Shown one piece after another: positions 2,220-46,109 of a DNA stretch of 64,000 nt; the first letter of the stretch is position 1; every line of letters begins with the position of its first letter. The stretch is from the IMG/VR virus record IMGVR_UViG_3300031555_004294, positions 64,001-128,000 of that record. One strand, written 5' to 3'. Made by a program: the position numbers and the translations under genes. The notes under the pieces are model-generated. The model was given only the letters and a program-made list of their open reading frames with translations. It was not told where the DNA came from and made no database searches. The stretch comes from a virus. Lineage: Duplodnaviria > Caudoviricetes.

Positions 2220-2846
2220 ATGAAGAAATATAAATTTGAAAGTACAATGCATTCACAAAGAATGTTTCTTGGAATTATTTGTGGTTTATTACCTATTTGC
2301 TGTGTTTTATTTGGTTTATTAGGTACAGGTACAAATCCTACTGGCTGGTGGAATTCAATATCTGCTACATATTATGCAAACTCTAAAATGTGGCTAATTG
2401 GTTCTCTAACACTTGCATCGTTCTTTTTCTTTACTTATAAAGGATATGACTTAGGTGACCGAGTATTTACAACAATTAGTGGCATTGCATCAATTTGTAT
2501 TGTAATTTTCCCATGTAATATAAATTCTGTTACTGATACACACGTTGGTCTCTTAATGTTGCCAATTAATGTTTCTCATATCATACATTGTATTGCAGCA
2601 TCAGTATTATTTATTGGATTTGCGTTGATGATACTGATACAGTTTACAAAAGGTAATAACAAGAAACGAAACATCTTATATATAGTTTGTGGAAGTATAA
2701 TTGCAGTTTTTATGCTTAACCAAATCCTATCAGTAGTTTTAAATTATCCTGGTTACTGGACTATGATTAACGAGTTTTTTATGCTTGAAGCTTTTGCAGT
2801 TGCTTGGATTGTAAAGGGTGCGTCTATACAAAAAATAGAAGAATAA
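2220..2846 (+). CDS. multi-pass membrane protein (DUF998-like)
   Basis: About six hydrophobic segments, SISATYY and H..AA..F motifs, AGGAG RBS. Confidence 0.6.
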   Translation: MKKYKFESTMHSQRMFLGIICGLLPICCVLFGLLGTGTNPTGWWNSISATYYANSKMWLIGSLTLASFFFFTYKGYDLGDRVFTTISGIASICIVIFPCNINSVTDTHVGLLMLPINVSHIIHCIAASVLFIGFALMILIQFTKGNNKKRNILYIVCGSIIAVFMLNQILSVVLNYPGYWTMINEFFMLEAFAVAWIVKGASIQKIEE

Positions 2847-2852
2847 AATTTA

Positions 2853-2896
2853 AAGAGGAAAGTGATTAAGTATCACTTTCCTCTTGTTTTTTTTTT
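2853..2896 (+). terminator. intrinsic terminator between convergent genes
   Basis: AAGAGGAAAGTGAT-loop-ATCACTTTCCTCTT followed by a T-run. Confidence 0.75.
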
Positions 2897-2897
2897 G

Positions 2898-3802
2898 TTA
2901 AGACTCCCAGATTTCTTTCATCTTACGCTTCATCTCAATGATGAGCTTATTTGTGTATAGCATCGAATAACTATCTGTAGTCATACGTGATACTATAGAC
3001 ATGGGTGAGTAGATTGCTAAAATATTCTCATCAGGATATCTTTCAGAGAAAGGCTCTTCGCCTTTAGGTAATACGTCACTAACAATTGTCTTAACAGCAG
3101 TACCATAAACAACCTTATCGCCTGTCTTCAATCTGTCTCTATGTTTTACATAGAATTCGATAATGATACCTTCAAAGTCAATACCCTTAATCTTCTCGTC
3201 TTTGATCTGATCAACTCTTGGGAAAATTGTAGATTTGTTATTGGTATTCTCTACTATCTTCTTTCTAGTATTAACTTCTTTAGCATAGCTATCGATTAGC
3301 TTTTGAATGGACTCAGAACAAATTTCTTTAGGTACATTGTAGTAAACCTTAATGTCGATTATCTCACCAGAATACTTAGCTTTGATTGAGTCTTTACCCA
3401 TATCTTCTACAAACTCAGCAAAATCATCACCCATGCTATCAAGAATTCTATTTGCATCAGCATCTTCAAAAGTATGCTCGAAGGAAATTAAACTTTCACT
3501 AGTTTTAACATGTTGATGTTTTTTAACCATTTGTAGAATGTTTGTATTAGGTGCTAGCTTCACAGTAGTTGCCATAGTTACATAAGACGACATATTTTCC
3601 GAAACCTCATTTGTAATAACAGATGAGTCCTCTAATGTATAGTCACCCTGTGCTATAGCTACTTTTGCTAGTAAACCTTGAGAGAATGTAACTTTATCAG
3701 TTTTATTACCTAAGAAGAAATCACTATTCTTTGCTAGAATGTCATTCTTCTTAAATTTTTGACCTTCTTCGAAAAGTAGGTCTTTTTTGTTGGAAATGTA
3801 AA
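2898..3802 (-). CDS. multisubunit RNA polymerase beta subunit, exon 2
   Basis: The frame is open upstream of the called ATG (3593) to 3802: (F)YISNKKD...GDYTLEDS (beta GYNFEDS motif), then LKTGDKV..KTIVS and YSPMSIVSRM (beta GDK..KGVVS and NPLGVPSRM motifs). Confidence 0.9.
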
Positions 3803-3954
3803 CATTAATATTTGCATAGAGACATTAATTCTATGACTGCTAGGCTTTTAAACCTAGATTAGACTATATCTTCTTGTACTTTCCTATTATACAATCATTT
3901 GACTGCAATATAGTCGTTGAACTTATCTTAAAAAATGTAATTTTGAAAAATTTG

Positions 3955-3966
3955 AATATATATTCT
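3955..3966 (+). promoter_or_regulatory. putative phage early promoter motif driving the intron cargo operon
   Basis: AATATATATTCT; the same motif precedes other non-structural units (36046 +, 44483 -, 49633 -, 55739 -). Confidence 0.6.
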
Positions 3967-4137
3967 AAATGTAGATAAAAGGTGCTACGAATTAGATAGT
4001 AATTCTATCCTTTAACAGAATTGGCAAATGCAGATTTGAACTCTGTGTAAAGTCCCTGTTATAGCAGTAGTTAAATGGAATTTGAGAAACAGCCTTTAAA
4101 AATTTTTATACTTTTACTAAAAGGAGTTAACTACAAA

Positions 4138-5019
4138 ATGGAAAAAACTATCTACAACGGAATGGAATTTAATTACTATCAGATCGCTGAAATCCTGCTT
4201 GGTAATATGGAAGGTATTGATACATCTAACTACACTGATCCTAAAATTTCTTATCAAGAAATGCAAAAAATTAGATTGCGACTGGTTGAAGATAAGAAAA
4301 TTAAAGATAGTTGGTATGAAAATTTTGGTTTAAAACAGATTAACGGAAAATGGATGTCTGTTAGAAATATTAAACCTTGTCCTATTTCAGAAGGAAATTG
4401 CGATAAAGGAATTCAAATTCTGTTAGGTCTTAAAAAAGGGTTAGACGTATCTATTTACGCAAAACCTGAGTTTAGCGGTTTACAGATGCAGGAAATTAGA
4501 TTAGGTCTTGAAAAAGGGTTAGACGTATCTATTTACGCAAAACCTGAATATAGTCACCATCAGATGGACAAAATTCTATTTGGTCTTGAAAGAGGGTTAG
4601 ATGTGTCTATTTACGCAAAACCTGAGTTTGACAGTTGCCAAATGAATCAAATCATATGTTTTCTTGTAAGAGGATTTGACATAAATAAATATCTTGATGC
4701 AGGAATTACTAGTTCAGATATGTTATATGAAGCTGGACGTGGTCTTAATGAAGGTATAGACTTATTCGATTATGCTAAGCAGTTAAATGATTCAACTCAG
4801 CTTTATGAGATTTTAATGGGTATTCGAAAAGGAATAGATGTATCTGTATATGCTAAACCTGAGTTTAGCACCGATCAGATGTGTCAAATCAGAATAGGCC
4901 TTGAAAGGGGATTAGACGTATCTGCATATGCAAAACCTGAACTTAAAGCTAGTGTGATGAAACAGATCAGATTCTGTCTTCAAAAAGGACTAGATATGAC
5001 CGTACATCTTAAAACTTAA
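4138..5019 (+). CDS. tandem 26-aa repeat protein (intron cargo gene 1)
   Basis: Repeats of KGLDVSIYAKPEF..QM.EIRLGLE with 78-nt DNA periodicity; AAGGAG RBS before ATG 4138. Confidence 0.8.
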   Translation: MEKTIYNGMEFNYYQIAEILLGNMEGIDTSNYTDPKISYQEMQKIRLRLVEDKKIKDSWYENFGLKQINGKWMSVRNIKPCPISEGNCDKGIQILLGLKKGLDVSIYAKPEFSGLQMQEIRLGLEKGLDVSIYAKPEYSHHQMDKILFGLERGLDVSIYAKPEFDSCQMNQIICFLVRGFDINKYLDAGITSSDMLYEAGRGLNEGIDLFDYAKQLNDSTQLYEILMGIRKGIDVSVYAKPEFSTDQMCQIRIGLERGLDVSAYAKPELKASVMKQIRFCLQKGLDMTVHLKT

Positions 5020-5050
5020 TTTTACTTGAACAAAAGGAGAACTAATAAAA

Positions 5051-5482
5051 ATGAATGTAACAACTTCAATCATTAACGAACACGGAAACCAACTCAAATT
5101 CACATCTATTCCTCGAAGATACACATCAGGAAATACAGAATATTGGAAGGAATATGATAAGAACGGTAATCTTATCTATGAAAGATTTTCCAATGACGTT
5201 GTAAGGACTCATCTCTATGATGCACAGGGTAAGTTTATCCTTACATACGATCCTTCAGAAATGGGAGCTATAGTAGCTATCCGTCTTTTCTATGATGAGT
5301 ATCGTAGTGTAATGGCAGAACTTGCTTTTGCATATGGAAGTACTCATACTATCGAATGGACTGATATAGCTCAGAGAAGAGCATTCCAGATCGGTATCAA
5401 TGGATATACTTTCATCTTTGATGAGAGAGATGTAGCTAAAGAAAAAACCTTCCAAGATTTTGTAAAAACAAAGGAGAACTAA
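5051..5482 (+). CDS. hypothetical protein, paralog of 5713-6150 (intron cargo)
   Basis: AAGGAG RBS; shares WxEYDxNGNLIxERFS and IGINxYTFIFDERD with 5713-6150. Confidence 0.8.
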   Translation: MNVTTSIINEHGNQLKFTSIPRRYTSGNTEYWKEYDKNGNLIYERFSNDVVRTHLYDAQGKFILTYDPSEMGAIVAIRLFYDEYRSVMAELAFAYGSTHTIEWTDIAQRRAFQIGINGYTFIFDERDVAKEKTFQDFVKTKEN

Positions 5483-5486
5483 CAAA

Positions 5487-5681
5487 ATGAAACTTCGTGA
5501 TGTACTCAATGTTATTAGTGGTGGCACTAATATCAGAATCTCTGTCAACTGCAATACTATCTTTTCTGGTCGAATGGCCGATGTAAAGGTAACTGATTGG
5601 ACCAATACTGTCGGTCCTTATCTGGATAATGAAGTCTACAGACTCAATACTTTCAATGGTTACATAACTATCGCTTGCTAA
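5487..5681 (+). CDS. small hypothetical protein (intron cargo)
   Basis: AAGGAG RBS, tight operon packing. Confidence 0.7.
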   Translation: MKLRDVLNVISGGTNIRISVNCNTIFSGRMADVKVTDWTNTVGPYLDNEVYRLNTFNGYITIAC

Positions 5682-5712
5682 AAATCACACAAGCAAAGGA
5701 GAATTAAACAAA

Positions 5713-6150
5713 ATGCTTGAATCTAAAACTATCATCGAAACTGAAAATGGCAATCGTCTTGAGTTTACGAATTTCACTCCTGACCAAATTAAATCCTATG
5801 GTAAGATCTGGAGGGAATATGATACCAATGGTAATCTTATTCATGAAAGATTTTCTACTGGAGTTATGAAAAACTATCTTTATGATGAGGATAATAAACT
5901 CATCGAAGAATATGATCCTATGGTAAAAGGAGCCATCAATGAAATTCGCATTTTCTATGACGAAGGTCATAAAATCAAGGCAGAACTTACTTTTGCCTTT
6001 GGTGGTACTACAATCATCGATTGGACTGATGTAACTCAAAGAGGACTCTATGAAATTGGTATCAACGCATATACTTTTATCTTTGATGAAAGAGATGCCG
6101 TTAGAGAAAGATTTTTCCAAGATTTTATAGTAACAAAGGAGACAAAATAA
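5713..6150 (+). CDS. hypothetical protein, paralog of 5051-5482 (intron cargo)
   Basis: AAGGAG RBS; similar to 5051-5482 along its length. Confidence 0.8.
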   Translation: MLESKTIIETENGNRLEFTNFTPDQIKSYGKIWREYDTNGNLIHERFSTGVMKNYLYDEDNKLIEEYDPMVKGAINEIRIFYDEGHKIKAELTFAFGGTTIIDWTDVTQRGLYEIGINAYTFIFDERDAVRERFFQDFIVTKETK

Positions 6151-6151
6151 A

Positions 6152-6595
6152 ATGTCATCTACTAATGCAGAATTCGAAATTGGAGAATTTGTAATAACAA
6201 CAGAAAAAATCCAAAATCACCATGGTTCTCTTGAAAAAGACATGGTTGTAGAAATAGTCGGTATAAACAAATCAAATCATACATACGATGTCTGTTTTGA
6301 TAGTGACGCTGGAAAGATTCTTGGAGTTCTTCGTGAAGTTAGTCATACAAGTCTCAAGAGATCTCCTATTCTTAACAGTTCTTATAGATTCACAGAATGT
6401 ACTAGAACTGCAGTAGAAAAAATAGAGCAAGCTATTTCCGTTATTTACGATCAAGATGCAAATGAAGAATGTATTAATGATCTTAAAAATGTCATTGAAC
6501 TTCTTTTTAAGGCTAGACACAATGTTCGTTTTACATTAACACCTGAGATGATCAAGAAATATGAAACACTCAACAAAGGAGAAATAACAAAATGA
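6152..6595 (+). CDS. hypothetical protein (intron cargo)
   Basis: RBS; C-terminal helix pair resembles 6592-6825. Confidence 0.7.
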   Translation: MSSTNAEFEIGEFVITTEKIQNHHGSLEKDMVVEIVGINKSNHTYDVCFDSDAGKILGVLREVSHTSLKRSPILNSSYRFTECTRTAVEKIEQAISVIYDQDANEECINDLKNVIELLFKARHNVRFTLTPEMIKKYETLNKGEITK

Positions 6596-6825
6596 AAATC
6601 AAAACAACAAATATCAATCAAGACAGCAATAAAATTGAAATCGATAACAACACCCAAAAATACATGGGTCATATCACATCTGCTATTGACAAGGCAGAAC
6701 AAGCTCTTTCGAGTATAACTTATACAAGTCATTCAGATGTAAACGAAGAGCCTATCAAGCTTATCAATAAAGCCATCGAACTTCTTGAAAAAGCTCAGGA
6801 TAGTACCATCTACAAACCTGTATAA
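6592..6825 (+). CDS. small hypothetical protein (intron cargo)
   Basis: ATGA overlap with the upstream gene, AAGGAG RBS. Confidence 0.7.
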   Translation: MKIKTTNINQDSNKIEIDNNTQKYMGHITSAIDKAEQALSSITYTSHSDVNEEPIKLINKAIELLEKAQDSTIYKPV

Positions 6826-6842
6826 AGGAGATACCACAACAT

Positions 6843-7061
6843 ATGGAAACTTTTATAATTTGCTTTAAACTTGACAATGCTTATAGGATTTTAGATCAAG
6901 TTGCCATTGTCTATGCAAGAAATCAAGACCATGCAATAAGCCTTCTTAATGCAATGTATGAGAAGTGTCAGTATGAATCAATAAAGTCCATTTACAGTGT
7001 TAGCAAATTAAGTGAAGATGGTAATCCTACTATTTTCACATATACCCCAGCTTTATATTAA
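6843..7061 (+). CDS. small hypothetical protein (intron cargo)
   Basis: AAGGAG RBS. Confidence 0.7.
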   Translation: METFIICFKLDNAYRILDQVAIVYARNQDHAISLLNAMYEKCQYESIKSIYSVSKLSEDGNPTIFTYTPALY

Positions 7062-7072
7062 GGAGAACGACT

Positions 7073-7813
7073 ATGGTTACAAAATACAATGTCATTAATT
7101 TCTTTGAAAAAAGAAAAGGTGACCCAACTGTTCCTCATACAATAGATGAGAAACATGAAAACATCATCTACAAAGATACAGGTAAAGTCCTTGCTACAAT
7201 CGATGAGTACATGGCTGCTATGAAAAAAGTACTTCATTGTGACTTTGAACTCATCTATGATGAACATCCTTCCTGTTTCTCAGTCATCCGTTGTAAGGAA
7301 TGTGGAACTGTAATCTTTGAACGTTATGATGAAGATTATGATCCAAATCTTTGCTGTCCTACTTGTGGGGGCTATAAAACTTACTTTGATTTCTGGACGA
7401 AGGAAGAAATTGATAGTGATGAGGAAAAACAAAAAGCTATCAAAAACTACGAAGAAATGCAACGTGAGTTGGATGAGTCCTATGCAAGACGACAGAAAAG
7501 AGGAGGTCTTTATGATTGGGAGATTTGGAAAAAGAGAATTGAGTTCAAGAAAACCCTTTGGAATATCTCTCTTGAATGTGATAATCTTTTCTATAGCAAA
7601 CCAAAACTTAAAGGTCTAAAACTCATTATCAAAATGAGTAAAAGAGATCCTGAATATGACGACATGTTTGTCTGGAAGAAGTCTACAAGAATTCCTCTAT
7701 CTTGGTATGCTTTCTACATACATTGTATTCTCCCATACTCTAAAACATGTCCAGAAGAATTACGCAAGTACCATTTCTGGCAGAAGAAACCTAAAGATCA
7801 GGAGGAAGGATAA
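7073..7813 (+). CDS. zinc-ribbon protein (intron cargo)
   Basis: CKECG and CPTCG pairs; AAGGAG RBS. Confidence 0.7.
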   Translation: MVTKYNVINFFEKRKGDPTVPHTIDEKHENIIYKDTGKVLATIDEYMAAMKKVLHCDFELIYDEHPSCFSVIRCKECGTVIFERYDEDYDPNLCCPTCGGYKTYFDFWTKEEIDSDEEKQKAIKNYEEMQRELDESYARRQKRGGLYDWEIWKKRIEFKKTLWNISLECDNLFYSKPKLKGLKLIIKMSKRDPEYDDMFVWKKSTRIPLSWYAFYIHCILPYSKTCPEELRKYHFWQKKPKDQEEG

Positions 7814-7816
7814 TTT

Positions 7817-8275
7817 ATGCACAACATCACTACAAGATACAAAGAGATTAAAGTTTGGTCTGCAAGTAAATTTAATCTCATCATCGCTATCGTTTTCATC
7901 GTTCTTACTGTACTGCTTGAAGCAGGAATTTTACACTGTATATTTACAGATAAAATTGGAAGTGCTGTTTTATTACAGTTTATGGTATCACCAATAACAA
8001 TTGTAGTTGCATCATGTGGAATTGGTACTTATAAACGAAGAAAAGAATTTACATTATACTTCAGCCAAATTGATGACGTTATTGATATCTCAAGACTTAA
8101 ATCTGAATATCATCTTTGCATGATTGATGGGTATGGTGTATTATTTATCAAAAACGATGATATACCTTCATATTCTGATTGGACTACTTTTGGTAGCTAT
8201 AATTCTACTTATAGAATTGAAGAAAAGTTTTTTAAAAATAGCACAATTTCTTTCATTACTAAAAAGGAGGACTAG
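7817..8275 (+). CDS. membrane protein with two TM segments (intron cargo)
   Basis: Two N-terminal hydrophobic stretches; GGAGG upstream. Confidence 0.7.
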   Translation: MHNITTRYKEIKVWSASKFNLIIAIVFIVLTVLLEAGILHCIFTDKIGSAVLLQFMVSPITIVVASCGIGTYKRRKEFTLYFSQIDDVIDISRLKSEYHLCMIDGYGVLFIKNDDIPSYSDWTTFGSYNSTYRIEEKFFKNSTISFITKKED

Positions 8276-8279
8276 AATA

Positions 8280-8450
8280 ATGAAAACCTATAGTGTAAGT
8301 ATACTTCATAAAACTGGTAGGGTTGTAAGACCTTATATCTTCAACGTTGAAGCATCAAATGAAAAAGATGCAGAGAATGAAGTCATGAGTAAAGTTAAAG
8401 CTCTTAATCTTAAAGGATCTTTAAGCGTTGATTTCGTTGAAGAAATTTAA
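8280..8450 (+). CDS. small hypothetical protein, 56 aa (intron cargo)
   Basis: AAGGAGG RBS before ATG 8280 (MKTYSV...), in frame with track ORF 8124-8450. Confidence 0.65.
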   Translation: MKTYSVSILHKTGRVVRPYIFNVEASNEKDAENEVMSKVKALNLKGSLSVDFVEEI

Positions 8451-8473
8451 CAAACAGAAAGGAAAATATCGCC

Positions 8474-8734
8474 ATGATGACTAAAACCCAATTTGCAAAA
8501 AAGATCGTTGAAGGATTTTGCAAAGATGTTGACTACAGAACTATTACTGATTGGTCTCCTTATATCTGTATGAGTAGTAGACTCGCAGTTGCATTAGAAT
8601 TCCTTGGATTGATTCCGAAGGATTCTTATACAGAATCTAGAGGAGGAATTGAAATGGTTTACTATGACAAGGAGAATAATGAGTCTGCAATTCTTTCAAC
8701 CAGAGAACTTCTTTCGTTGCTTCCTGATGAATAA
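8474..8734 (+). CDS. hypothetical protein (intron cargo)
   Basis: AAGGA RBS, 86 aa. Confidence 0.7.
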   Translation: MMTKTQFAKKIVEGFCKDVDYRTITDWSPYICMSSRLAVALEFLGLIPKDSYTESRGGIEMVYYDKENNESAILSTRELLSLLPDE

Positions 8735-8748
8735 TTAAAGTTCAAGAA

Positions 8749-8780
8749 AGTGTTAAGGGATCACTTTAAATATCCCTTCT
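8749..8780 (+). repeat. hairpin direct repeat copy 1 (copy 2 at 9159-9190)
   Basis: AGTGTTAAGGGATCACTTTAAATATCCCTTCT matches copy 2 at 30 of 32 positions. Confidence 0.85.
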
Positions 8781-8806
8781 CTAATTTATAAAACTAGAAA
8801 GGAAAT

Positions 8807-9145
8807 ATGTTAACCATGAAACGTGAATATATTGACAACGAAGAAATCATGAGTAACGATACTATTGAAATGGAGCATATCGTCACTGCAAAAAGGATTG
8901 AAAATAATATTGTGCTTTTTCAAAACGTAATTGCTAGTTTTTCAGGTGTAAAACTTACCGATGGTAAAGGCCCAAATGATCCAGATGAAGATGCATTTTG
9001 TGAGTTCAAATACAAAGATGATAAATTTTACTATAGAGATAGTCTCACAAAAGAGTTTGAAGAAGTTACATATGCTTTTTGGACGAATACTCTCTTATAC
9101 TATGTTTCTGAAGGACATAGTATTCATTATTTCAATGAAGACTAA
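8807..9145 (+). CDS. hypothetical protein (last intron cargo gene)
   Basis: AAGGA RBS; flanked by the duplicated hairpin. Confidence 0.7.
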   Translation: MLTMKREYIDNEEIMSNDTIEMEHIVTAKRIENNIVLFQNVIASFSGVKLTDGKGPNDPDEDAFCEFKYKDDKFYYRDSLTKEFEEVTYAFWTNTLLYYVSEGHSIHYFNED

Positions 9146-9158
9146 TTCATCTACATAC

Positions 9159-9196
9159 AGTGTTAAGGGATCACTATAAATGTCCCTTCTTTTTTT
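9159..9196 (+). terminator. terminator of the cargo operon, just inside the P6 arm
   Basis: AAGGGA...TCCCTT stem followed by CTTTTTTT. Confidence 0.7.
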
Positions 9197-9286
9197 ATAA
9201 TTTTTTAAGATAAGCTGCTGATTATACAAAATTTTGTATGTTCCAGCAATTAAGGAAGTTTATCAAGGTGATCAATAATAAATTTC

Positions 9287-12200
9287 AACCACCATTAGAG
9301 TTTTTACTAATACGTTCAGATATATCAATTACATCTGTCGTACCATCTTTGTAACGAATTATTACTAACTCGTTCTTTGTATCTACCTTTTCTACTACAC
9401 CATCTTGTTCTGCAATAGATACAAAGTCAGAGGATAAAGTATAAGGTAGAGTTCTTTCTATACCAGAGCCATATAAAGGTCTGGATTGTTTTTCAGTGGG
9501 AACTGAGTGTTTCGCTTGTTGCGTCTGCATTCCAATTCTCGGAGGATCCGCATGAAGTGAGGTATAGCAAGACAATAGTTCACCAGCTGTTAGCATATTA
9601 GTTGCTGCTAAGTCTTGAACGTTAGTATTTGTATCGATGAAACCAAAATTGTTAGTTACTTTAGGATTATAACTGAGCTGACGAGTTACGCCAACCTTAT
9701 TACTATCAGGTGAACTTATTCCAAGTAGACCAACCATACTTTGGTCGTAAGATCTCATTTGAGGTGTAAAGGCATCATCTAAATTAGTACCTCCGATACC
9801 CTTATAAGTTGTTGATCCAAGTCTTTCAATTTCAAGCACAGGACTAAGTGTCGAATATGCTTCAACAATAGGACTTTCAACCAACTTCTTAATTACAGCA
9901 TCAGGACTGTGTAATGAAATCTTTCTATCAGTATAACCTGACTTATAAGCATCTTTATATTCCCTAACAGCTTCAGATAACACATCATACAATGTTGCAT
10001 TAACAGTTTCTATACTACGTAGACGATAGTTTTTCATATCATTTACAGGTACATAACTGTTATCAGACAATAAAGTATTACAATGTAACAAAACTCCTAA
10101 AAGGTCATTAGGAAGTTTCATGTAATCTAAAATTTCTTTAGTCTTAGGGTCTAAAAGGAAGTTCAAAGTATTTTGGAAACCTTTAGCTAAGTTTCTCTTA
10201 CCATAACGTAAATCAAAATACTCGATGTAAATACCTTTTTCATTCATAGCTGCAAATTCAGTTTCCTTCAAGAAAGGAATGTCATTCAATCCATTCATGA
10301 GTAAACTGTTTCTTAATGGAGTAGACTTATAGTTCAGATAACCATCAGCAAATCTTATAGATGACCATAATGAAACATCGTCATCATCTAATTGCTTCTT
10401 TTTTTCTGAGAACTCGTATTCTATTCCATATCTAAGCATTACATTTTCTAAACCAAAATAGAAACCTGTAAGAATAATTAACGGAATCATAGTTCCAGTT
10501 ACTTTAGTTCTTACATACATGAACTTAGAAGAAACTTTTTGATTTAGCAGCTTCTTATAAAGTTCTGTCTCTTCATGTTGTTTAAAAATACTTAGGACTA
10601 GATTGAAAATTGAAGTATAAGTTGTACTAGCTTGAAGTTTCAAAGCTTCATTCAAGTTAGAATTGTAGGAATGAATTAAACCATCTTCTACGTTGATAGT
10701 ATAAATGATACCATTTACTTTGTTAACTCCTAGCAAGTACTCTCCTTCTGGAATTGAATCATCAATACTTCTATCTAAGAATTCTGAAATCTCAGCATTT
10801 ACTTTATCTCGGTTAAAACATAACATAACGTTTCTGTTATAGTCAAACGAGAGCATATATCTAGAAACTTCGTCATACTCCATTAGAGTTGAATATTTAG
10901 AGTTAACTTGGACGCAATTTCCTAACTTTACAGAAATCTTTCCTTTATGACTAGGTGCATCTTTCAAAATAAAATTCTTCAATTTGTCAGAGTTAGATGA
11001 AAGTTTGGAATTAAATCTCCAGAAAAACATCTTACCCTTGTCAGTAGAAATTGAAACTTCGTTTGGCTTATTTTTAGTAATTGGTAGCTTCATTAACTGT
11101 TTACCAATACTAACTTTGTGATCATTAAGATACATGAACGAATTATCATAAATGATAGGCATCTCGATGTTAACGATATGTCTATTACCCCAACCATCTT
11201 CGTAATTGACCTTAATGAGTTCTTTCTTGTTAATTTCATCTGAGATATCTTCTCTTGAGAGGTCAGTTATATAAATAGGACATTCTGGATCATTATTAAA
11301 CGCAGAAAGGACTTTAATCAAGTCTTTATCTTTTTGATTCTTAACGTAGTTTCTATCTAATTCTTTAAGAGTACAAGTTTTTACTTCCTCATTCAGTGTG
11401 TTAATGTTTATCGTTTCTGTATTAATAGAATGAACTTCATGGTCATGCAAAATGTTATCAATATTGAGTGGCTTGTTACTCACTTTAATATTGACATCAA
11501 CTTTATTTTGCTTTTCCTTAAGTCGTTCTAACTTATTTTCAGGAACTGTAGTCTGATTATTTTTCAAATTGACGAGATAATTCAAAAATCTCTCATCATT
11601 ATTAAGTTCATCTTCTAGTTCATCAACATTGTTAAAGGAAGTTGCTTTATTATCAATGGTTTTTTCAATTCTATCTAGAAGTTCTAAATCATCCGTGTTT
11701 AAAGCAATTTTGTCTGTCAGTTTTAGTCCTTTTACAATCTTATTTTTAATGGGTTTTGCTATATCAGCTTTAACCTGTTTTGATTGTAAATTCTTAATTT
11801 TTTCTGAAGATTGTTTATTTGTTACAGATAAAACTTTACTACTGGATTGAACTATTTGATTATCAGAATTCTGAATTTCTGCTTCTTCTTCCTTATCCAA
11901 CTCTATTCCATTAGAAATTTTATACAAGATGTTTGAAAGTTTCTTGAATTTAGCTAATGAAAATTTTGGATCAGAAAAGTCTACTAAAAACATTCTCGTA
12001 TTGTTTTTATCAGAAAATACGAACTTGTATTTTTTAAAGAACTCGTAATCAAAAGTTCCCTGTTTAAGCATGAAATACAAGATATTTTCAAAACTAAATA
12101 TACGTCCAGTAGTAATTAGCTCTTTAGGAATTACTTGAATGAAAACTTCAGAATAACTATTAGTTTTACCTAAAATTTCTTTTAAAAATGGTATGAATGG

Positions 12201-12617
12201 TTTTAATTTACTTTCAAAACTTTTATAAGATTTATACGTCTCTTCAAATACTTTATAATATCCATAGGTATCAAAATAAGTATTGTATCCTCCATATAAA
12301 TCTAATTTGATTCGCTTAAAAGTAATATTTGGACTTTTAACATCCATTTCTTTGTACTTTACATCTTGTAAAGTATCTACTTTTCTACCCCTACAAGAAG
12401 CTAATTTTTCTGTTTTATAAGGATAGAAGTAACCTTTTACAAATTGTTTGATAAACAGATTGGAGTTAATGATGTCATAAACATCTGATGAAGATGTATT
12501 CAACGAAAATATTAATCGACCTTTTTGTTTATTAGTATTTTCATCATTACTTAGATAGAGGTTATAATTTTTATAAAGATACAAATTTTTATCTAAATCG
12601 TAGTAATTAACCCTCAT
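9287..12617 (-). CDS. multisubunit RNA polymerase beta subunit, exon 1 (probably virion RNAP; spliced product 1411 aa)
   Basis: Beta motifs SPVLEIERLGSTTYKGIGG, SSPDSNKVGVTRQLS and HADPPRIGMQTQQAKHSVP (cf. HDDANRALMGSNMQRQAVP). The ORF stops at the intron boundary. Virion assignment is inferred from the late-type motif. Confidence 0.9.
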
Positions 12618-12648: not shown

Positions 12649-12660
12649 TAGTATTTTGTT
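12649..12660 (-). promoter_or_regulatory. putative late promoter AACA-N6-TA
   Basis: AACA-AAATAC-TA just upstream of the RNAP beta RBS; matches the AR9 late consensus. Confidence 0.6.
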
Positions 12661-14764: not shown

Positions 14765-14841
14765 TGGGGTGTAGCCAAGTGGCCTAAGGCACGAGACTTT
14801 GACTCTCGCATTCGAATGTTCAAATCATTCCACCCCAGCCA
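14765..14841 (+). tRNA. tRNA-Gln(TTG)
   Basis: Cloverleaf, anticodon loop CT-TTG-AC, encoded CCA. Confidence 0.9.
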
Positions 14842-15055
14842 ACGGTATATTTGTTAGAAGCATCGACAAGGATATGAGTTGTTGGAGTACTATGAAGAGT
14901 AAATGCGAGATTATCGCAGTTAGCCACCTAAGCAATGCGTGCATGTAATGGATATTAGTTTCAAATATTGAGTTCTCCGCCAATTCCAGAGTATGACTGA
15001 CCTTCAACAGAAAACTGTAAAACAAAGAGGGAAATAAGACATATGAAAGAGGTTT

Positions 15056-15610
15056 ATGAAAATGAGCAAATCAATGCTATTTAATTGGGCATTCAAGCGA
15101 ATTTTAGGGTTAAGAGATGTTGGTGTATTCTTTAAGGTAATGAAGGAGCGCAAAGAAATTAAAACACAAGTTAATCTTAAAGGAGCCATAAGTTCTCCTA
15201 ATCATCTTAGCGAAATCATTGTTGGTCATGATGAACAGATTGATAAATGGATTGAGCCTATGGCTGCTGGAACTGAAAGTTGCCCTTATTGGGATTGTAC
15301 AAGACTGTTCTACGGCAAGGAGGCTAACTTTGACTGGGGCGAAAAGAATATGGAATATTGGCTTGGTATGAGACAAACAGTTCTAGCTCCTATCATCCCT
15401 ATTCCGATTTGTGCTTATGAGGAAGTCTATATTCTTGGTGAATCGGATAAGGCTTTTAGAGATTGCATGAAGAAGTATGGTAAAGCTCGTGCTTTCCATG
15501 ATCACGCTGAAGAGTTTGGTGCAAAGAAGATAATTGATAAAACAAATGTCTACTTTATGCAATGTGACATTTCTTATATGAAAGACCCTGTGTGGTCTAC
15601 TTGTGAGTGA
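15056..15610 (+). CDS. hypothetical protein inside the tRNA cluster
   Basis: 184 aa, GAGG RBS. Confidence 0.65.
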   Translation: MKMSKSMLFNWAFKRILGLRDVGVFFKVMKERKEIKTQVNLKGAISSPNHLSEIIVGHDEQIDKWIEPMAAGTESCPYWDCTRLFYGKEANFDWGEKNMEYWLGMRQTVLAPIIPIPICAYEEVYILGESDKAFRDCMKKYGKARAFHDHAEEFGAKKIIDKTNVYFMQCDISYMKDPVWSTCE

Positions 15611-15746
15611 TGTAGTCGCTATACAAATGACTATCTTTTTGTGAAATTATATTTCACACAAGTGAGCCTCTGTTGTGAACAGACTCCAAGGCTACGGCGA
15701 TTGGCCTCTCGAAAGAGTTAAAAATCGCCATTTATTTCAAATAATT

Positions 15747-15837
15747 GGAGAGATACCCAAGAGGTCGAAGGGGGCGGTCTACTAAACCGCTAGGGCATGT
15801 AAATGTTGCAAGAGTTCAAATCTCTTTCTCTCCGCCA
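15747..15837 (+). tRNA. tRNA-Ser(ACT)
   Basis: Long variable arm, G discriminator, stem GCGGT/ACCGC with loop CT-ACT-AA, CCA end. Confidence 0.85.
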
Positions 15838-15888
15838 AATATTTATTAAAGTTCTCAGTAGTTTTAACCTGTTGGGAACTTTATCTAT

Positions 15889-15963
15889 GCTGGTGTGGCT
15901 CAATGGCAGAGCAGCTGATTTGTAATCAGCAGGTTGATGGTTCGAATCCGTTCACCAGCTCCA
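15889..15963 (+). tRNA. tRNA-Thr(TGT)
   Basis: Cloverleaf, loop TT-TGT-AA, CCA end. Confidence 0.93.
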
Positions 15964-15966
15964 TTT

Positions 15967-16041
15967 CGGGATGTAGCGTATTGGTTACGCACTAGTTTTG
16001 GGAACTAGATCAAGTAGGTTCGATTCCTATCATTCCGACCA
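15967..16041 (+). tRNA. tRNA-Pro(TGG)
   Basis: CGGGATG acceptor, loop TT-TGG-GA, CCA end. Confidence 0.88.
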
Positions 16042-16129
16042 GAAATATTGATTAAAGTCTTGATATTTTAAATTACTAGACTTTAAATTTTTAAAAATCT
16101 GAGTAATAAATAATTATTCAGATTTTTAT

Positions 16130-16205
16130 TCCTCCTTAGCTCAGTCGGCAGAGCACCTGACTGTTAATCAGGGTGTCGCTGGTTCAAGCCCAGCAGGGGG
16201 AGCCA
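16130..16205 (+). tRNA. tRNA-Asn(GTT)
   Basis: Cloverleaf, loop CT-GTT-AA, GCCA end. Confidence 0.93.
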
Positions 16206-16247
16206 TATTAAAGTCTTGATAAATTAAATCATCAAGACTTTACATTT

Positions 16248-16323
16248 GCAGTAGTAACTCAATTGGTAGAGTGCTAGCCTTCCAAGCTGGATGTCGCGAG
16301 TTCGAGCCTCGTCTACTGCTCCA
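16248..16323 (+). tRNA. tRNA-Gly(TCC)
   Basis: Cloverleaf, loop CT-TCC-AA, TCCA end. Confidence 0.93.
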
Positions 16324-16467
16324 ACAAAAAATTTAAATCAAGTTTTAAATACATATTTTAAACTTGAAAAAAAAGGAAACGTATTAAAGTAAATTTTAAA
16401 TACATATTCTTATTCTGTAAAAAGAAAATGAATTACATGACAAATGTTAACACTTTCCTTTACATAT

Positions 16468-16554
16468 GGGGGTATGGCGGAACAGGTAGACGCAAGGGAC
16501 TTAAAATCCCTCGGTAGAGATACTGTGAGGATTCGAATTCCTCTACCCCCACCA
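16468..16554 (+). tRNA. tRNA-Leu(TAA)
   Basis: Long variable arm, loop CT-TAA-AA, ACCA end. Confidence 0.93.
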
Positions 16555-16607
16555 CTCGTTTAGGTAATTCTATCCTATAATAGAATTACCTAAACATTTT
16601 TATTTAT

Positions 16608-16684
16608 GGGACATTAGCTCAGTTGGTCAGAGCATTCGGCTCATAACCGAACGGTCCAAGGTTCGAGACCTTGATGTCCCACCA
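16608..16684 (+). tRNA. tRNA-CAT (probably Ile2, possibly elongator Met)
   Basis: Loop CT-CAT-AA; CGG/CCG anticodon stem resembles Firmicute tRNA-Ile2. Confidence 0.85.
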
Positions 16685-16689
16685 TATAT

Positions 16690-16765
16690 GATCCATTAGC
16701 TCAGATGGCAGAGCACATGACTTTTAATCATGGTGTCCGGAGTTCGACTCTCCGATGGATCACCA
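16690..16765 (+). tRNA. tRNA-Lys(TTT)
   Basis: Cloverleaf, loop CT-TTT-AA, ACCA end. Confidence 0.93.
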
Positions 16766-43248: not shown

Positions 43249-43358
43249 TTTTTAGAGTATAACCTCATAAACGGTTATACTCTAACTTTCTTAACCTTTA
43301 AAACACCCTTCCAACATTCCATTATAAAATAACAAAGGAAAGGAGGAAATAACATTTT

Positions 43359-43982
43359 ATGACTGTAAACAATAGTTACATCATAGATACTCAAACCACC
43401 AATAAATCATTCAAACGAATGTATAAGATACTCAAAACTATTGGAGTTAAGAATAATAAATTCTTCTTAAAACTTTATGATACTAGTTTGCAAGGAGTAA
43501 ATCCTAGAGATGAAGCCAATTTAACTAAAGAACAGAAGATGCGTATACTAGCAGAATGTAAACGTAATCCTTGGTATTTCTTTAGAGAAGTGGTCATTCT
43601 GAATGTTGCTGGTGGTAAAAAAAGATTTGAACTACATCGTGGTAACTTAGCTATTCTATGGTGTATGTTAAACAACTACAACTCAATTACTTTATTGCCT
43701 CGTCAGCATGGTAAAACGGTTTCTACAGTATGTGGTTTTGTTTGGTTATATACCTTTGGTACAGAAAACTCAAACATACTCTTTATGAATAAAGACTTTG
43801 GTGGTTCAAAGAACAACCTAAAGCTATTCAAAGATATCTATGACAATTTACCTTCCTATCTTAAAAATAGAAACAAAAATGACAAAGACAATGTAGAATT
43901 CATTGTCAATGCAACTACTGGTAACACTATTCGTGCAATTTCATCGGCTATTAGTGCAGCTGAAGCAGATAAGCGAGGACGT
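43359..43982 (+). CDS. terL: terminase large subunit, exon 1
   Basis: ECKRNPWYFFREV and Walker A LPRQHGKT; ends DKRGR at the intron boundary; AACA-N6-TA at 43313-43324. Confidence 0.9.
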
Positions 43983-44669
43983 AAATTTAACTGCGTTTCA
44001 ATAGCATAAACTATTGTCAAAAATTTCTTAATTGCTGGGAACATACAAAAAATTTGTACTATCAGCAGTCATTTATAAAAAAAAAAAGAAAGCCTTATAG
44101 AGACTTTCTTTTTTGTATGGAAATACTTTATTCTGTAACTTCCTCAACAGTTGTTTCTTCTGTAAGAGTATCAGGTTTAATTTCTACCAACTCTTCTTCA
44201 GAAGTAACTTCCTCAGTTACAGTTCCTTCATCGTTATTTTCAGTTTCAGCATTTGCTACATCAGATTGGATTTCCTCCAAGATGTTAGCAACCTGTTCCT
44301 TGAGCTTTGCCTTCTTCTTCTTTCTGATGTGGCAAACAGTACCTACTGCTCCTGCAACCAAAGCAACAGCTCCTACTCCAATAGCGATTACACCAATAGT
44401 CTTTCCGTTCATTTTTTAGTTCTCCTTTTTAAATAAAAATTTTTGTTAGAATAATTTATGTATTTCCTTCTAACTCACAATAAGAATATATATTTGAAAA
44501 GTTGAACTTTACGATTTTTATAAATGATTCAACGACTATATATTACATTCAGAATTTGAATGGAAATTGAAATGATCCTTAACACTAGGATTTTGATATA
44601 GTCTCAACTTCTATGGAAACATAGAGAATATTTTACATGAACTAATGACTCATGTATCAAGATTTTTTG
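43983..44669 (+). mobile_element. group I intron (687 nt) in terminase, with an antisense gene in the P6 loop
   Basis: Exon end GGACGU pairs with IGS GCGUUU. P AAUUGCUGGGAA (44030-44041), Q AUCAGCAG (44061-44068), R UUCAACGACUAUA (44528-44540), S GAUAUAGUCU (44595-44604), P9 CUAUG-GAAA-CAUAG, terminal G 44669. Join restores RGR-GLTSPLIYYDE. Confidence 0.93.
44128..44412 (-). CDS. small single-pass membrane protein (terminase intron cargo)
   Basis: AAGGAG RBS, N-terminal TM, basic patch, acidic tail; early-type motif at 44483-44494 and hairpin at about 44082-44114. Confidence 0.8.
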   Translation of the reverse strand: MNGKTIGVIAIGVGAVALVAGAVGTVCHIRKKKKAKLKEQVANILEEIQSDVANAETENNDEGTVTEEVTSEEELVEIKPDTLTEETTVEEVTE

Positions 44670-46109
44670 GGTTTAACCTCACCTCTTATCTACTACGATG
44701 AATTTGCTTTCTTAAAGTTTAACAAAATCCTTTGGCAAGCAGCTGCACCTGCACAGGGTCAGGCAAGAGAAGAAGCTCGTCGAAATAAATCATTCTACTC
44801 AGCAACTATAACTACTACACCAAACAATATAGATAACAATCCTGAATCAGAAGGAACTTGGTGTAAGTCAGAAATGGTTGATAAAGCATGTCGCTTTGAT
44901 GAAGCCATGTATGACTGGACTAGAGAAGAAGTTCTTGAATGTCTGGCTAAGAAATCTGATAACGACTTTTTATACATTGAGTTTTCTTACAAACAACTTG
45001 GTCGTGATGAAGTATGGTATAAAGAAAACTGTCGTGCATTAAATAACGACCTTCTTAAAATCAAACGTGAAATTCTTCTTGAATGGACAAAAGCATCTGA
45101 CGTATCAGTATTCTCTGAGGAACAGTTAGTTGCAATAGAAAAGCATTTGAAAGAACCAGTATCTAAATTAGTCATTGACAGATATTGGTCTATTGATCTT
45201 TATAGAACAGACTTTGATTATCTTAAACCTTGGGTAATTTCTTGTGACGTTGGTACTGGCCTTTCGCAAGACGCTTCTGCTATAACTATCTTCCATCCTA
45301 TAACATTTGAAATCATAGGTGAATTTAGAGAGAATAAAATAGATACAGAAGACTACAAGCATTTACTTGAGAAGTTGGTTGGCTTCTGGTTCCGTAATTC
45401 ATTGCTTACCATAGAGAACAACTCTATTGGTATAACGATCATACAGTACTTAATGCGAACAGTTGTAGCTAAGAACTTGTACTATGAATACAAGGATCGA
45501 AAAGGTACTAAGATAGAGAAATCTAAGACTGAGTTAACACATGTTAGTAAAAAAGAAAAGGTACAAGTTTATGGTATTTCAACTACAAGTAATTCCTCTG
45601 GTAGTGGTAGCCGTGACTTAATGTTAGAAATTTTGAACGATACTATAAACACACAACCTGAATTATTAGCAACACCCAACCTATTCTCGGATATTAAGGG
45701 ATTAGAGAGAGATAATAAAGGAAAGATCGGCCATGGTCTTGGTCTCCACGACGACTCTCTCTTTTCTTATTTAGTTGGACGTTACACTCTAGCTTATGGT
45801 ACTAACTTAGCTCGTTTCCAAATGCCAGTAGATGGTAAAGAACCTGCAGATAGAAAGGCTAGTATGGCACGTATGTCACATAATTTACAAGAAGCCAATA
45901 GACTATCAGTTAGACCTGGTGCTACTAAAGCATTCGGTTATAATGGATTAGCAAATCAAGAAATTGAACAAGCTAGCTACTTAGAATTAAGAAAACAAAT
46001 AGATGCTGGTGGTAGAATTGGTGTTTATACTAGTATAAGTCAAATTGAGGAATTAGATAAGAAAAGTAAATACCGACTATTAAGTTCTGACATTTGGGAT
46101 AACAAATAA
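44670..46109 (+). CDS. terL: terminase large subunit, exon 2 (spliced product 687 aa)
   Basis: Walker B IYYDEFAF, motif III TTTP, nuclease motifs CDVGTG..QDAS, IENNSIG and HDDSL. Confidence 0.9.
   Translation, partial: GLTSPLIYYDEFAFLKFNKILWQAAAPAQGQAREEARRNKSFYSATITTTPNNIDNNPESEGTWCKSEMVDKACRFDEAMYDWTREEVLECLAKKSDNDFLYIEFSYKQLGRDEVWYKENCRALNNDLLKIKREILLEWTKASDVSVFSEEQLVAIEKHLKEPVSKLVIDRYWSIDLYRTDFDYLKPWVISCDVGTGLSQDASAITIFHPITFEIIGEFRENKIDTEDYKHLLEKLVGFWFRNSLLTIENNSIGITIIQYLMRTVVAKNLYYEYKDRKGTKIEKSKTELTHVSKKEKVQVYGISTTSNSSGSGSRDLMLEILNDTINTQPELLATPNLFSDIKGLERDNKGKIGHGLGLHDDSLFSYLVGRYTLAYGTNLARFQMPVDGKEPADRKASMARMSHNLQEANRLSVRPGATKAFGYNGLANQEIEQASYLELRKQIDAGGRIGVYTSISQIEELDKKSKYRLLSSDIWDNK

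Follow-up and report, generated by a model that had tools for sequence, protein, structure and literature searches.

Distant inverted repeats as predicted P6 helices of two phage group I introns that carry antisense gene cassettes

Introduction

In a 64,000-nucleotide (nt) stretch of caudoviricete DNA (positions 64,001 to 128,000 of IMG/VR record IMGVR_UViG_3300031555_004294; hereafter the window), a 15-base-pair (bp) perfect inverted repeat bounds a block of tightly packed genes inside the gene for a virion RNA polymerase (RNAP) beta-like subunit, and a second, 13-bp repeat lies inside the gene for the large terminase subunit. A preliminary description of the sequence took these repeats for long P6 clamps that reunite the halves of a group I ribozyme, either within one long precursor or between two separate transcripts. 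The locus thus raises the questions of what the repeats are, whether they are specialized for their large cargo, and whether the halves they join would splice in cis or in trans. The terminase and RNAP genes have distant kin in Bacillus phages AR9 and PBS1 and in Staphylococcus jumbo phages, and by its sequence the virus is probably an AR9/PBS1-like jumbo phage from the gut. Our analysis makes it likely that both repeats are the P6 helices of cis-splicing group I introns whose loops hold opposite-strand early transcription units within late genes.

Results

Both repeats are present as they had been described. Positions 3922-3936 (CTTATCTTAAAAAAT) are the exact reverse complement of 9200-9214, and positions 44069-44081 (TCATTTATAAAAA) are the exact reverse complement of 44515-44527. 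The 15-bp repeat is the longest perfect inverted repeat within 3700-9400, although considered without an anchor it is marginal, as perfect inverted repeats of at least 15 bp occurred in 5.5% of 200 dinucleotide shuffles of that region. The arms, however, open directly after the Q element (ATCAGCAG) and close directly before the R element (TTCAACGACTA). When pairing is anchored at these elements, with a pairing probability of 0.28 per position, the chance of 15 pairs is ~5e-9 and that of 13 pairs ~6e-8. In all group I introns, the interval between Q and R is occupied by P6. Because the arms sit exactly there, the earlier identification of the repeats as P6, closing the cargo loops of two related introns, stands, and judged from sequence both appear to be ordinary P6 helices of two paralogous group I introns.

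Alignment of the two introns revealed that their 5′ and 3′ parts share 73-77% mean column identity, as expected of paralogs, and that the P (AATTGCTGG), Q, R, and S (GATATAGTC) elements are present in canonical order in both. In the folds of both introns, P4 (P with Q) and P7 (R with S) form. Minimum-energy folds in which the insert was replaced by a tetraloop contained P1, P4-P5, P6, P7, an inner hairpin, P9, and P9.1, to which intron 2 adds P2 and P8. The P3 pseudoknot, assigned by eye, pairs CTTCCT with AGGAAAG in intron 1 and AATTTC with GAAATT in intron 2. Both introns have a P1 with a U.G pair, end in G, and restore the reading frame upon ligation. The core would best be described as subgroup-IA-like.

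Intron 1 (3803-9286, minus strand; 5484 nt) interrupts the RNAP beta-like gene, whose best AR9 match is its ortholog g189, the virion RNAP beta subunit. Exon 1 (9287-12617, minus) ends ...KNSNGG followed by T, the first base of a split Phe codon, and exon 2 (2898-3802, minus, stop codon included) starts TT TAC ATT; exon 1 gave matches to RNAP beta in PHROGs with expectation values (E) of 1e-118 to 4e-94. P1 pairs GGTGGTT with GATCACC and places its U.G pair at the 5′ splice site; the intron ends with the G at 3803. On the minus strand, the P element, the P5 hairpin, and the Q element, which make up P4-P5, occupy 9215-9251. They are followed by the P6 5′ arm (9200-9214; CTTATCTTAAAAAAT in the intron sense), the P6 3′ arm (3922-3936), and a segment (3862-3921) containing R (the P7 5′ strand), one hairpin, P3′ (AGGAAAG), and S (the P7 3′ strand). 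Predicted splicing at the nucleotide junction GGTGGTT|TTTACATT yields KNSNGG-F-YISNK, with the Phe codon split T|TT. The spliced sequence is gap-free when compared with KNSNGGFY and KNSGGGF(F/Y), the corresponding sequences of phages S6, LPJP1, and phiR1-37, whose genes are uninterrupted. Among the introns retrieved in this survey, intron 1 is by far the largest, at 5.5 kilobases (kb).

Intron 2 (43983-44669, plus strand; 687 nt) separates exon 1 of the terminase large subunit gene (43359-43982, plus; ending ...DKRGR) from exon 2 (44670-46109, plus; starting GLTSPLIYYDE). Only one of the 22 in-frame junctions tested, GGACGT|...G|GGTTTAAC, gives ...DKRGR|GLTSP, which is collinear with the large terminase subunits (TerL) of phiKZ and Desertfox; the P1 that matches this junction is GGACGT/GCGTTT, with the terminal G at 44669. 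The identifiable helices are P2, P3, P4-P5, P6 (arms at 44069-44081 and 44515-44527, plus), P7, P7.1, P8, P9, and P9.1. Since the junctions of both introns fall inside conserved motifs, mature RNAP beta and terminase would need RNA ligation, and for RNAP beta the split Phe codon leads to the same requirement. Protein collinearity thus places the predicted splice junctions exactly, and the introns presumably excise themselves.

To follow P6 beyond the window, we compared eight cassette-bearing introns, comprising the two described here and six relatives, five of them in related viral contigs and one in the cultured Bacillus phage vB_BpuM-BpSp (BpSp; KT895374). The five contig introns have 13-15 perfect anchored pairs, while P6 of BpSp has 11 perfect pairs and 2 more beyond a mismatch. 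The arms CTTATCTTAAAAAAT, CTTATCTTAAAAAT, TCATTTATAAAAA, CTTATTAAAAATC, CTATTAAAAACGTA(T), and CTATAAAAATGTAAA are each perfectly paired, and are identical or near-identical only between close orthologs. Contig L004 (319 kb, from another metagenome, with 82% protein identity over the best matched segment) has an orthologous RNAP-beta intron at the same site, in which P6 is shorter by one A:T pair on both arms. The intron halves of this ortholog are 88-92% identical to those in the window, compared to 80-86% for the flanking exons; its cargo of ~2 kb is almost wholly different, with only one small open reading frame (ORF) in common. At the terminase site, orthologs in contigs L183 (arm CTATTAAAAACGTA), L215 (CTATTAAAAACGTAT), and L241 (CTTATTAAAAATC) are each perfectly paired and have the same backward promoter and terminator, and antisense ORFs of the kind found in intron 2, where the ORF has 94 amino acids (aa), occur in L183 and L215. 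Thus, P6 pairing is kept by covariation across paralogs and orthologs, and its persistence through different sequences supports a selected helix.

An alternative is that the repeats belong to a mobile cassette at the DNA level, for example as its terminal inverted repeats or as footprints left by insertion into a hairpin, and are not a selected RNA helix. Near-identical terminase-site cores do have different arms with different cassettes (the window compared with L241), one terminator module is common to cassettes in different introns, and an unanchored 15-bp repeat is not rare in AT-rich DNA. In every case, however, the arms lie exactly between Q and R, where P6 must be. Moreover, at the same place in compact paralogs from this genome, P6 is a hairpin of just 5-7 bp. 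The orthologs at the RNAP site differ in cargo but keep their arms, where a one-base change in one arm is matched in the other, and cassettes with the common terminator module have different arms. These last two observations support a helix that belongs to the intron and not to the cargo, and we consider a DNA-level origin very unlikely. The compact paralogs, which carry no cargo, are three in number and lie outside the window (G000 ~113270-113540, minus; 117380-117640 and 118870-119140, plus). A sixth candidate copy at ~91.1 kb of the genome was rejected as coding sequence.

We also observed that L004 has an extra intron (intron A; L004 11270-12820) 80 codons upstream in its RNAP beta gene, with the P6 arm CTATAAAAATGTAAA and an antisense 397-aa ORF that encodes repeated Myb/helix-turn-helix-like DNA-binding modules and no recognizable nuclease domain. 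In the window the reading frame is uninterrupted at that point, revealing a presence/absence polymorphism. In L241 (IMGVR_UViG_3300029305_008869, ~2812-3230), the 277-nt loop has the backward promoter and terminator and no ORF of at least 25 codons; it also contains a second early-type motif, in the sense direction.

The repeats had further been regarded as long clamps that could allow splicing over 5.3 kb. Comparison with other introns spoke against a special clamp adapted to a loop of this size. As an unanchored search for distant stems gave mostly chance matches, we instead took, for each Q/R-paired intron retrieved from IMG/VR, the 25 nt that follow Q and the 25 nt that precede R and measured the duplex they form. 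Ordinary introns with sense endonuclease ORFs of 130-260 aa and loops of 500-850 nt have a short P6 plus a P6a of 10-17 bp. Most of these close with -13 to -17 kcal/mol and the strongest with -22.8 kcal/mol, as compared with -12.4 to -18.0 kcal/mol for the cassette-bearing introns; endonuclease-bearing introns therefore close as strongly or more. Scaling of the stem with loop size was also rejected. Loops of 277, 416, 432, 433, 1308, 1960, and 5263 nt have stems of 13, 15, 14, 13, 15, 14, and 15 bp, respectively (length, rho 0.42, p 0.35; energy, rho 0.11, p 0.82). A long closing helix accompanies having a loop insert at all, not the size or polarity of that insert. P6 here acts as P6/P6a does in any ORF-bearing phage intron and is not lengthened for large cargo.

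What sets these introns apart is the cargo, which in both is encoded antisense to the intron. In the cargo direction, intron 1 consists of an early-type motif 17 nt inside the P6 3′ arm, a leader of ~165 nt, twelve tightly packed ORFs (4138-9145, plus), and a putative terminator (9159-9199, plus), a hairpin that has a T-run after it only in the cargo direction and that abuts the P6 5′ arm. The leader (3973-4137) spans the distance from the predicted early start to the start codon of the first cargo ORF. Intron 2 is organized likewise, with a single 94-aa membrane protein (44128-44412, minus) that has a transmembrane helix at its N terminus and an acidic tail; its ORF has an AAGGAG ribosome-binding site. 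The terminator region of intron 2 (44082-44114) contains, on the intron-sense strand, the hairpin and T-run noted earlier, preceded by an A-run, and looks like a terminator for the antisense gene and in the intron-sense direction too.

The twelve ORFs of intron 1 include a 293-aa repeat protein, a zinc-ribbon-like 246-aa protein, a membrane protein, and a pair of paralogs (5051-5482 and 5713-6150). Scans of 11 of these ORFs in Pfam or PHROGs, 10 in each, revealed no convincing nuclease or other family, with the twelfth (8313-8450) compared to Pfam only. No nuclease family was found for the 94-aa ORF in the Pfam and PHROGs scans, and no reliable function emerged for the cargo from ESM Atlas, Pfam, or PHROGs. 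None of the cargo ORFs scanned matched an endonuclease of the LAGLIDADG, GIY-YIG, HNH, or His-Cys types, which mark loop ORFs of other introns.

The promoters are predicted from their likeness to those of AR9. In that phage, the early consensus AAATATATATTAT-(6N)-G is recognized by the virion polymerase, single changes in early promoters are not tolerated, and the late consensus is AACA-N6-TA (PMC5312081). The motif predicted to drive the cargo of intron 1 is GAATATATATTCT-N6-A (3954-3973, plus), which resembles AAATATATATTAT-N6-G, and that predicted to drive the antisense ORF of intron 2 is AAATATATATTCT-N6-G (44476-44495, minus). Eight early-type motifs are present in the contig, with the common form AAATATATATT[AC]T-N6-G. 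The cassettes therefore carry what appears to be an AR9-type early promoter. AACA-N6-TA occurs 30-45 nt before the start codons of both host genes, at 12649-12660 (minus, ~34 nt upstream of the beta gene start, fitting the AR9 late consensus) and at 43313-43324 (plus, upstream of the terminase gene), and is ~2-fold enriched upstream of genes compared to elsewhere in the contig. By analogy with AR9, the two motifs may represent early and late promoter classes.

Two features of the cassette boundaries were seen alongside these motifs. The P6 arms of all cassette-bearing introns are rich in A and U, and the 5′ arm has an A-run where it meets the loop. Seen from the cargo strand, this A-run lengthens the T-tract of the terminator, and the 3′ arm is located immediately upstream of the early promoter, suggesting that the arms may carry a double constraint. 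In intron 1, a 32-nt hairpin module is duplicated, at 9159-9190 with the T-run and at 8749-8780 without it. The same module is the terminator of the L004 intron A cassette (L004 11340-11375), which suggests that cassettes may grow or be exchanged by recombination at terminators.

A model that would accommodate this anatomy separates the two transcription units in time. Early in infection, the injected virion RNAP would transcribe the cassette and stop at its terminator, so that no antisense RNA would extend into exon 1. Late in infection, a non-virion polymerase would start at AACA-N6-TA upstream of the host gene and read through the cassette, where in the RNAP intron it would meet a hairpin lacking a U-tract in that direction. 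Once the 3′ half has been made, the 13-15-bp P6 could close the loop, allowing the core to fold and the exons to be ligated. Several findings are consistent with splicing in cis. The halves are collinear on one strand in 8/8 cassette-bearing introns, and they lie behind a late-promoter-like motif. The intron-sense strand of the 5.26-kb cargo contains only one late-type motif, 4.8 kb upstream of the 3′ half (0.19 late-type motifs per kb in the cargo compared to 0.94 genome-wide). In three RNAP-gene introns, the hairpin follows an A-run and has no T-run in the intron sense, so that it should stop cargo transcription only. We did not find the halves of the RNAP intron in separate transcription units, as would be the case in a split intron.

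A number of points weigh against this reading. The late promoter consensus is borrowed from AR9, and its enrichment is only ~2-fold. The 5′ half must wait for ~5.3 kb of transcription before its partner appears. In the terminase intron, the sense T-run could stop part of the late transcripts and open a two-piece route, and the palindromic core of the RNAP-intron promoter counts against a purely cis picture. Although phage DNA is present in several 2018 feces metagenome runs, 8/8 listed runs are DNA and none are RNA. Neither intron reaches the gathering score (50 bits) of Rfam RF00028, and a scan of the window at the gathering threshold gave tRNAs only. Lastly, by inspection and folding, no P8 hairpin is evident in intron 1 or its L004 ortholog, and consequently the self-splicing competence of the RNAP intron is not assured.

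The last two points raise the possibility that the RNAP-beta intron no longer self-splices, and that the gene is inactive, makes two polypeptides, or depends on a protein cofactor. The P8 hairpin cannot be drawn. Between the P7 strands of intron 1 (3862-3921) and of its ortholog (L004 15139-15200) we find only one hairpin and then P3′, and the ~17-nt P8 hairpin of the terminase intron and the compact paralogs is missing. The RF00028 score of intron 1, a partial match at 3842-3873, is only 18.3 bits, and jumbo-phage RNAP subunits are often split into separate polypeptides. The score may say more about the model than about the intron. The 3′ part of intron 2 also gave a partial match (30.3 bits, E 1.5e-5), and at an E of 0.01 there was no match for a compact paralog in contig L002 or for either intron of contig L184, while L183 scored 27.8 bits. 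As these introns also fail or score low, RF00028 is insensitive for this intron subgroup. Loss of splicing is also difficult to reconcile with a junction that lies inside a conserved motif, splits a codon, and leaves no gap relative to homologs. Separate translation of exon 2 would face a reading frame that opens 74 codons before its first ATG, and the only ATG considered near the junction is out of frame. Furthermore, between two phages the exons are no better conserved than the ribozyme halves, and early transcription in this phage group needs virion RNAP beta. A non-splicing intron is, in our judgment, an unlikely explanation.

A further alternative is bimolecular splicing, in which exon 1 with the 5′ half and the 3′ half with exon 2 would be separate RNAs held together by P6. 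Three routes can be envisaged. The late transcript could end at the cassette hairpin; the loop could be cut, perhaps by an RNase specific for double strands that attacks a duplex of sense RNA and leftover early mRNA; or the early promoter could also fire toward the 3′ half. For the first route, the terminase-intron hairpin looks bidirectional in four orthologs, having both an A-run and a T-run (4-6 in the intron sense). For the third, GAATATATATTC at 3954-3965 is, as had been reported, a perfect 12-nt palindrome, which in the intron sense would start RNA ~10 nt before the P6 3′ arm. A perfect helix of 13-15 bp, at -10 to -15 kcal/mol, could hold two RNAs, and the T4 td intron split in L6a reportedly trans-splices, a result ascribed to Galloway Salvo et al. 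in 1990.

These signals have to be set against the collinearity of the halves on one strand in all eight cases, the lack of any motif resembling a late promoter closer than 4.8 kb to the RNAP 3′ half, and the RNAP-intron hairpins that have no downstream T-run in the intron sense. Read in the intron sense, the promoter does not fit the consensus of the contig at position 13 or at its start base, and AR9 early promoters are intolerant of single changes (PMC5312081). An early RNA containing the 3′ half would find no late 5′ partner. In addition, the stem is like that of cis-splicing endonuclease-bearing introns. Bimolecular splicing is thus unlikely, and its specific form in which P6 is an intermolecular clamp for a late precursor broken in the cargo loop, by termination or duplex cleavage, with the pieces splicing in trans, we hold to be quite improbable; were it correct, natural bimolecular splicing of a group I intron would be seen in a virus for the first time. 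Of the earlier proposal that the helix reunites the ribozyme halves in cis or in trans, closure of the loop by P6 is retained, while the trans version has the signals above and no positive support. Splicing in cis from a continuous late transcript is the interpretation we favor.

Discussion

The introns described here share their P/Q/R/S core and the site of their insert with phage introns that have an ORF in the P6/P6a loop, such as T4 td with I-TevI and many in IMG/VR, and their closing helix is of similar or lesser stability. An example in a contig of a relative is L184, where a sense LAGLIDADG gene is closed by a P6 of 10-14 bp. They differ from such introns in that the cargo is on the opposite strand, has its own predicted early promoter and terminator, extends to 12 genes and 5.3 kb, and includes no recognizable homing endonuclease.

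Genes of this polarity or timing within phage introns have precedents. In AR9, the early gene g190 and its early promoter, mapped by dRNA-seq, lie inside an intron of the late gene g189 (PMC5312081). The host gene, virion RNAP beta, and the early promoter consensus are the same as here (PMC5312081), but g190 is a single HNH homing endonuclease gene on the same strand as its host. In mycobacteriophage LittleE, a capsid gene intron with a bottom-strand endonuclease gene was found by reverse transcription PCR to be efficiently spliced late (PMC3706429). It resembles our introns in having an antisense ORF within a late-spliced phage intron (PMC3706429); it differs in that the cargo is one homing endonuclease gene, no cassette with early promoter and terminator has been described, and the intron is of another lineage. 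Together, these cases indicate that intron-borne early or bottom-strand genes can coexist with normal late splicing.

The closest counterpart in a cultured phage is gp249 of BpSp. This antisense 106-aa ORF lies in the first intron of the gene for virion RNAP beta and has an early motif like that of AR9 and a terminator beside the P6 5′ arm (P6 of 11 + 2 bp); it differs in that the cargo is a single small gene. We found no paper that describes gp249 as intron cargo. In the BpSp record (L230 in our set), the virion RNAP beta gene contains four tandem introns of the same core class in a span of 2 kb (3225-5150), the first being that with gp249, and the exons are annotated as separate genes.

Many unrelated genes within a peripheral loop of a group I intron are known from the giant ND5-717 intron of hexacoral mitochondria (PMC6545197). 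There, however, the cargo is in P8 rather than P6, amounts to 18-19 kb, almost the whole mitochondrial genome, and is removed by back-splicing from a small permuted transcript (PMC6545197).

By themselves, the P6 stems add little, since any ORF-bearing phage intron closes its loop with stems that behave in the same way. The unusual part is the cargo, namely antisense, terminator-bounded cassettes with a predicted AR9-type early promoter and up to twelve genes. The cassettes define a recurring slot of fixed polarity inside introns of late genes, in which early promoter, genes, and terminator all run backward, and which has grown to 12 genes here. If the proposed timing is correct, intron loops would be insulated landing pads for early accessory genes, and cargo would be exchanged between phages while the ribozyme remains constant. 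Unless the introns are recognized, virion RNAP beta and terminase will be annotated as fragments. BpSp, being in culture, offers a direct experimental system for ribozyme folding across kilobases of antisense RNA.

Sequence sources and search scope

The viral contig in IMG/VR spans 156.9 kb, with an estimated completeness of ~61%, and the window is taken from its reverse strand. Megablast of 2800-10500 against GenBank phages gave no match. Pattern scans of IMG/VR (R...S; P...Q) retrieved the whole broad intron class, and a scan for the promoter core beside R yielded a single new member, L241, suggesting that the architecture is rare in IMG/VR.

We compared four metagenome runs, represented by short contigs only, over 2800-10000. 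Positions 3905-4462 were present in exact metagenome contigs, confirming the junction of the P6 3′ arm with the cargo, as were 8759-9188, confirming the junction of the cargo with the terminator. No independent contig from the four runs bridged 9189-9279. Because L004 has the orthologous architecture and the arms match, a chimeric assembly across this segment is argued against. One run (X1) contained single-contig joints, 3934 to 9159 and 9205 to 2905, whose sides are 30-35 nt with 85% likeness; these are uninterpretable and were not used. The first of them, which leads from the P6 3′ arm straight to the terminator, might come from a strain with other or no cargo. Elsewhere in the window, eight tRNA genes are clustered at 14765-16762 (plus).

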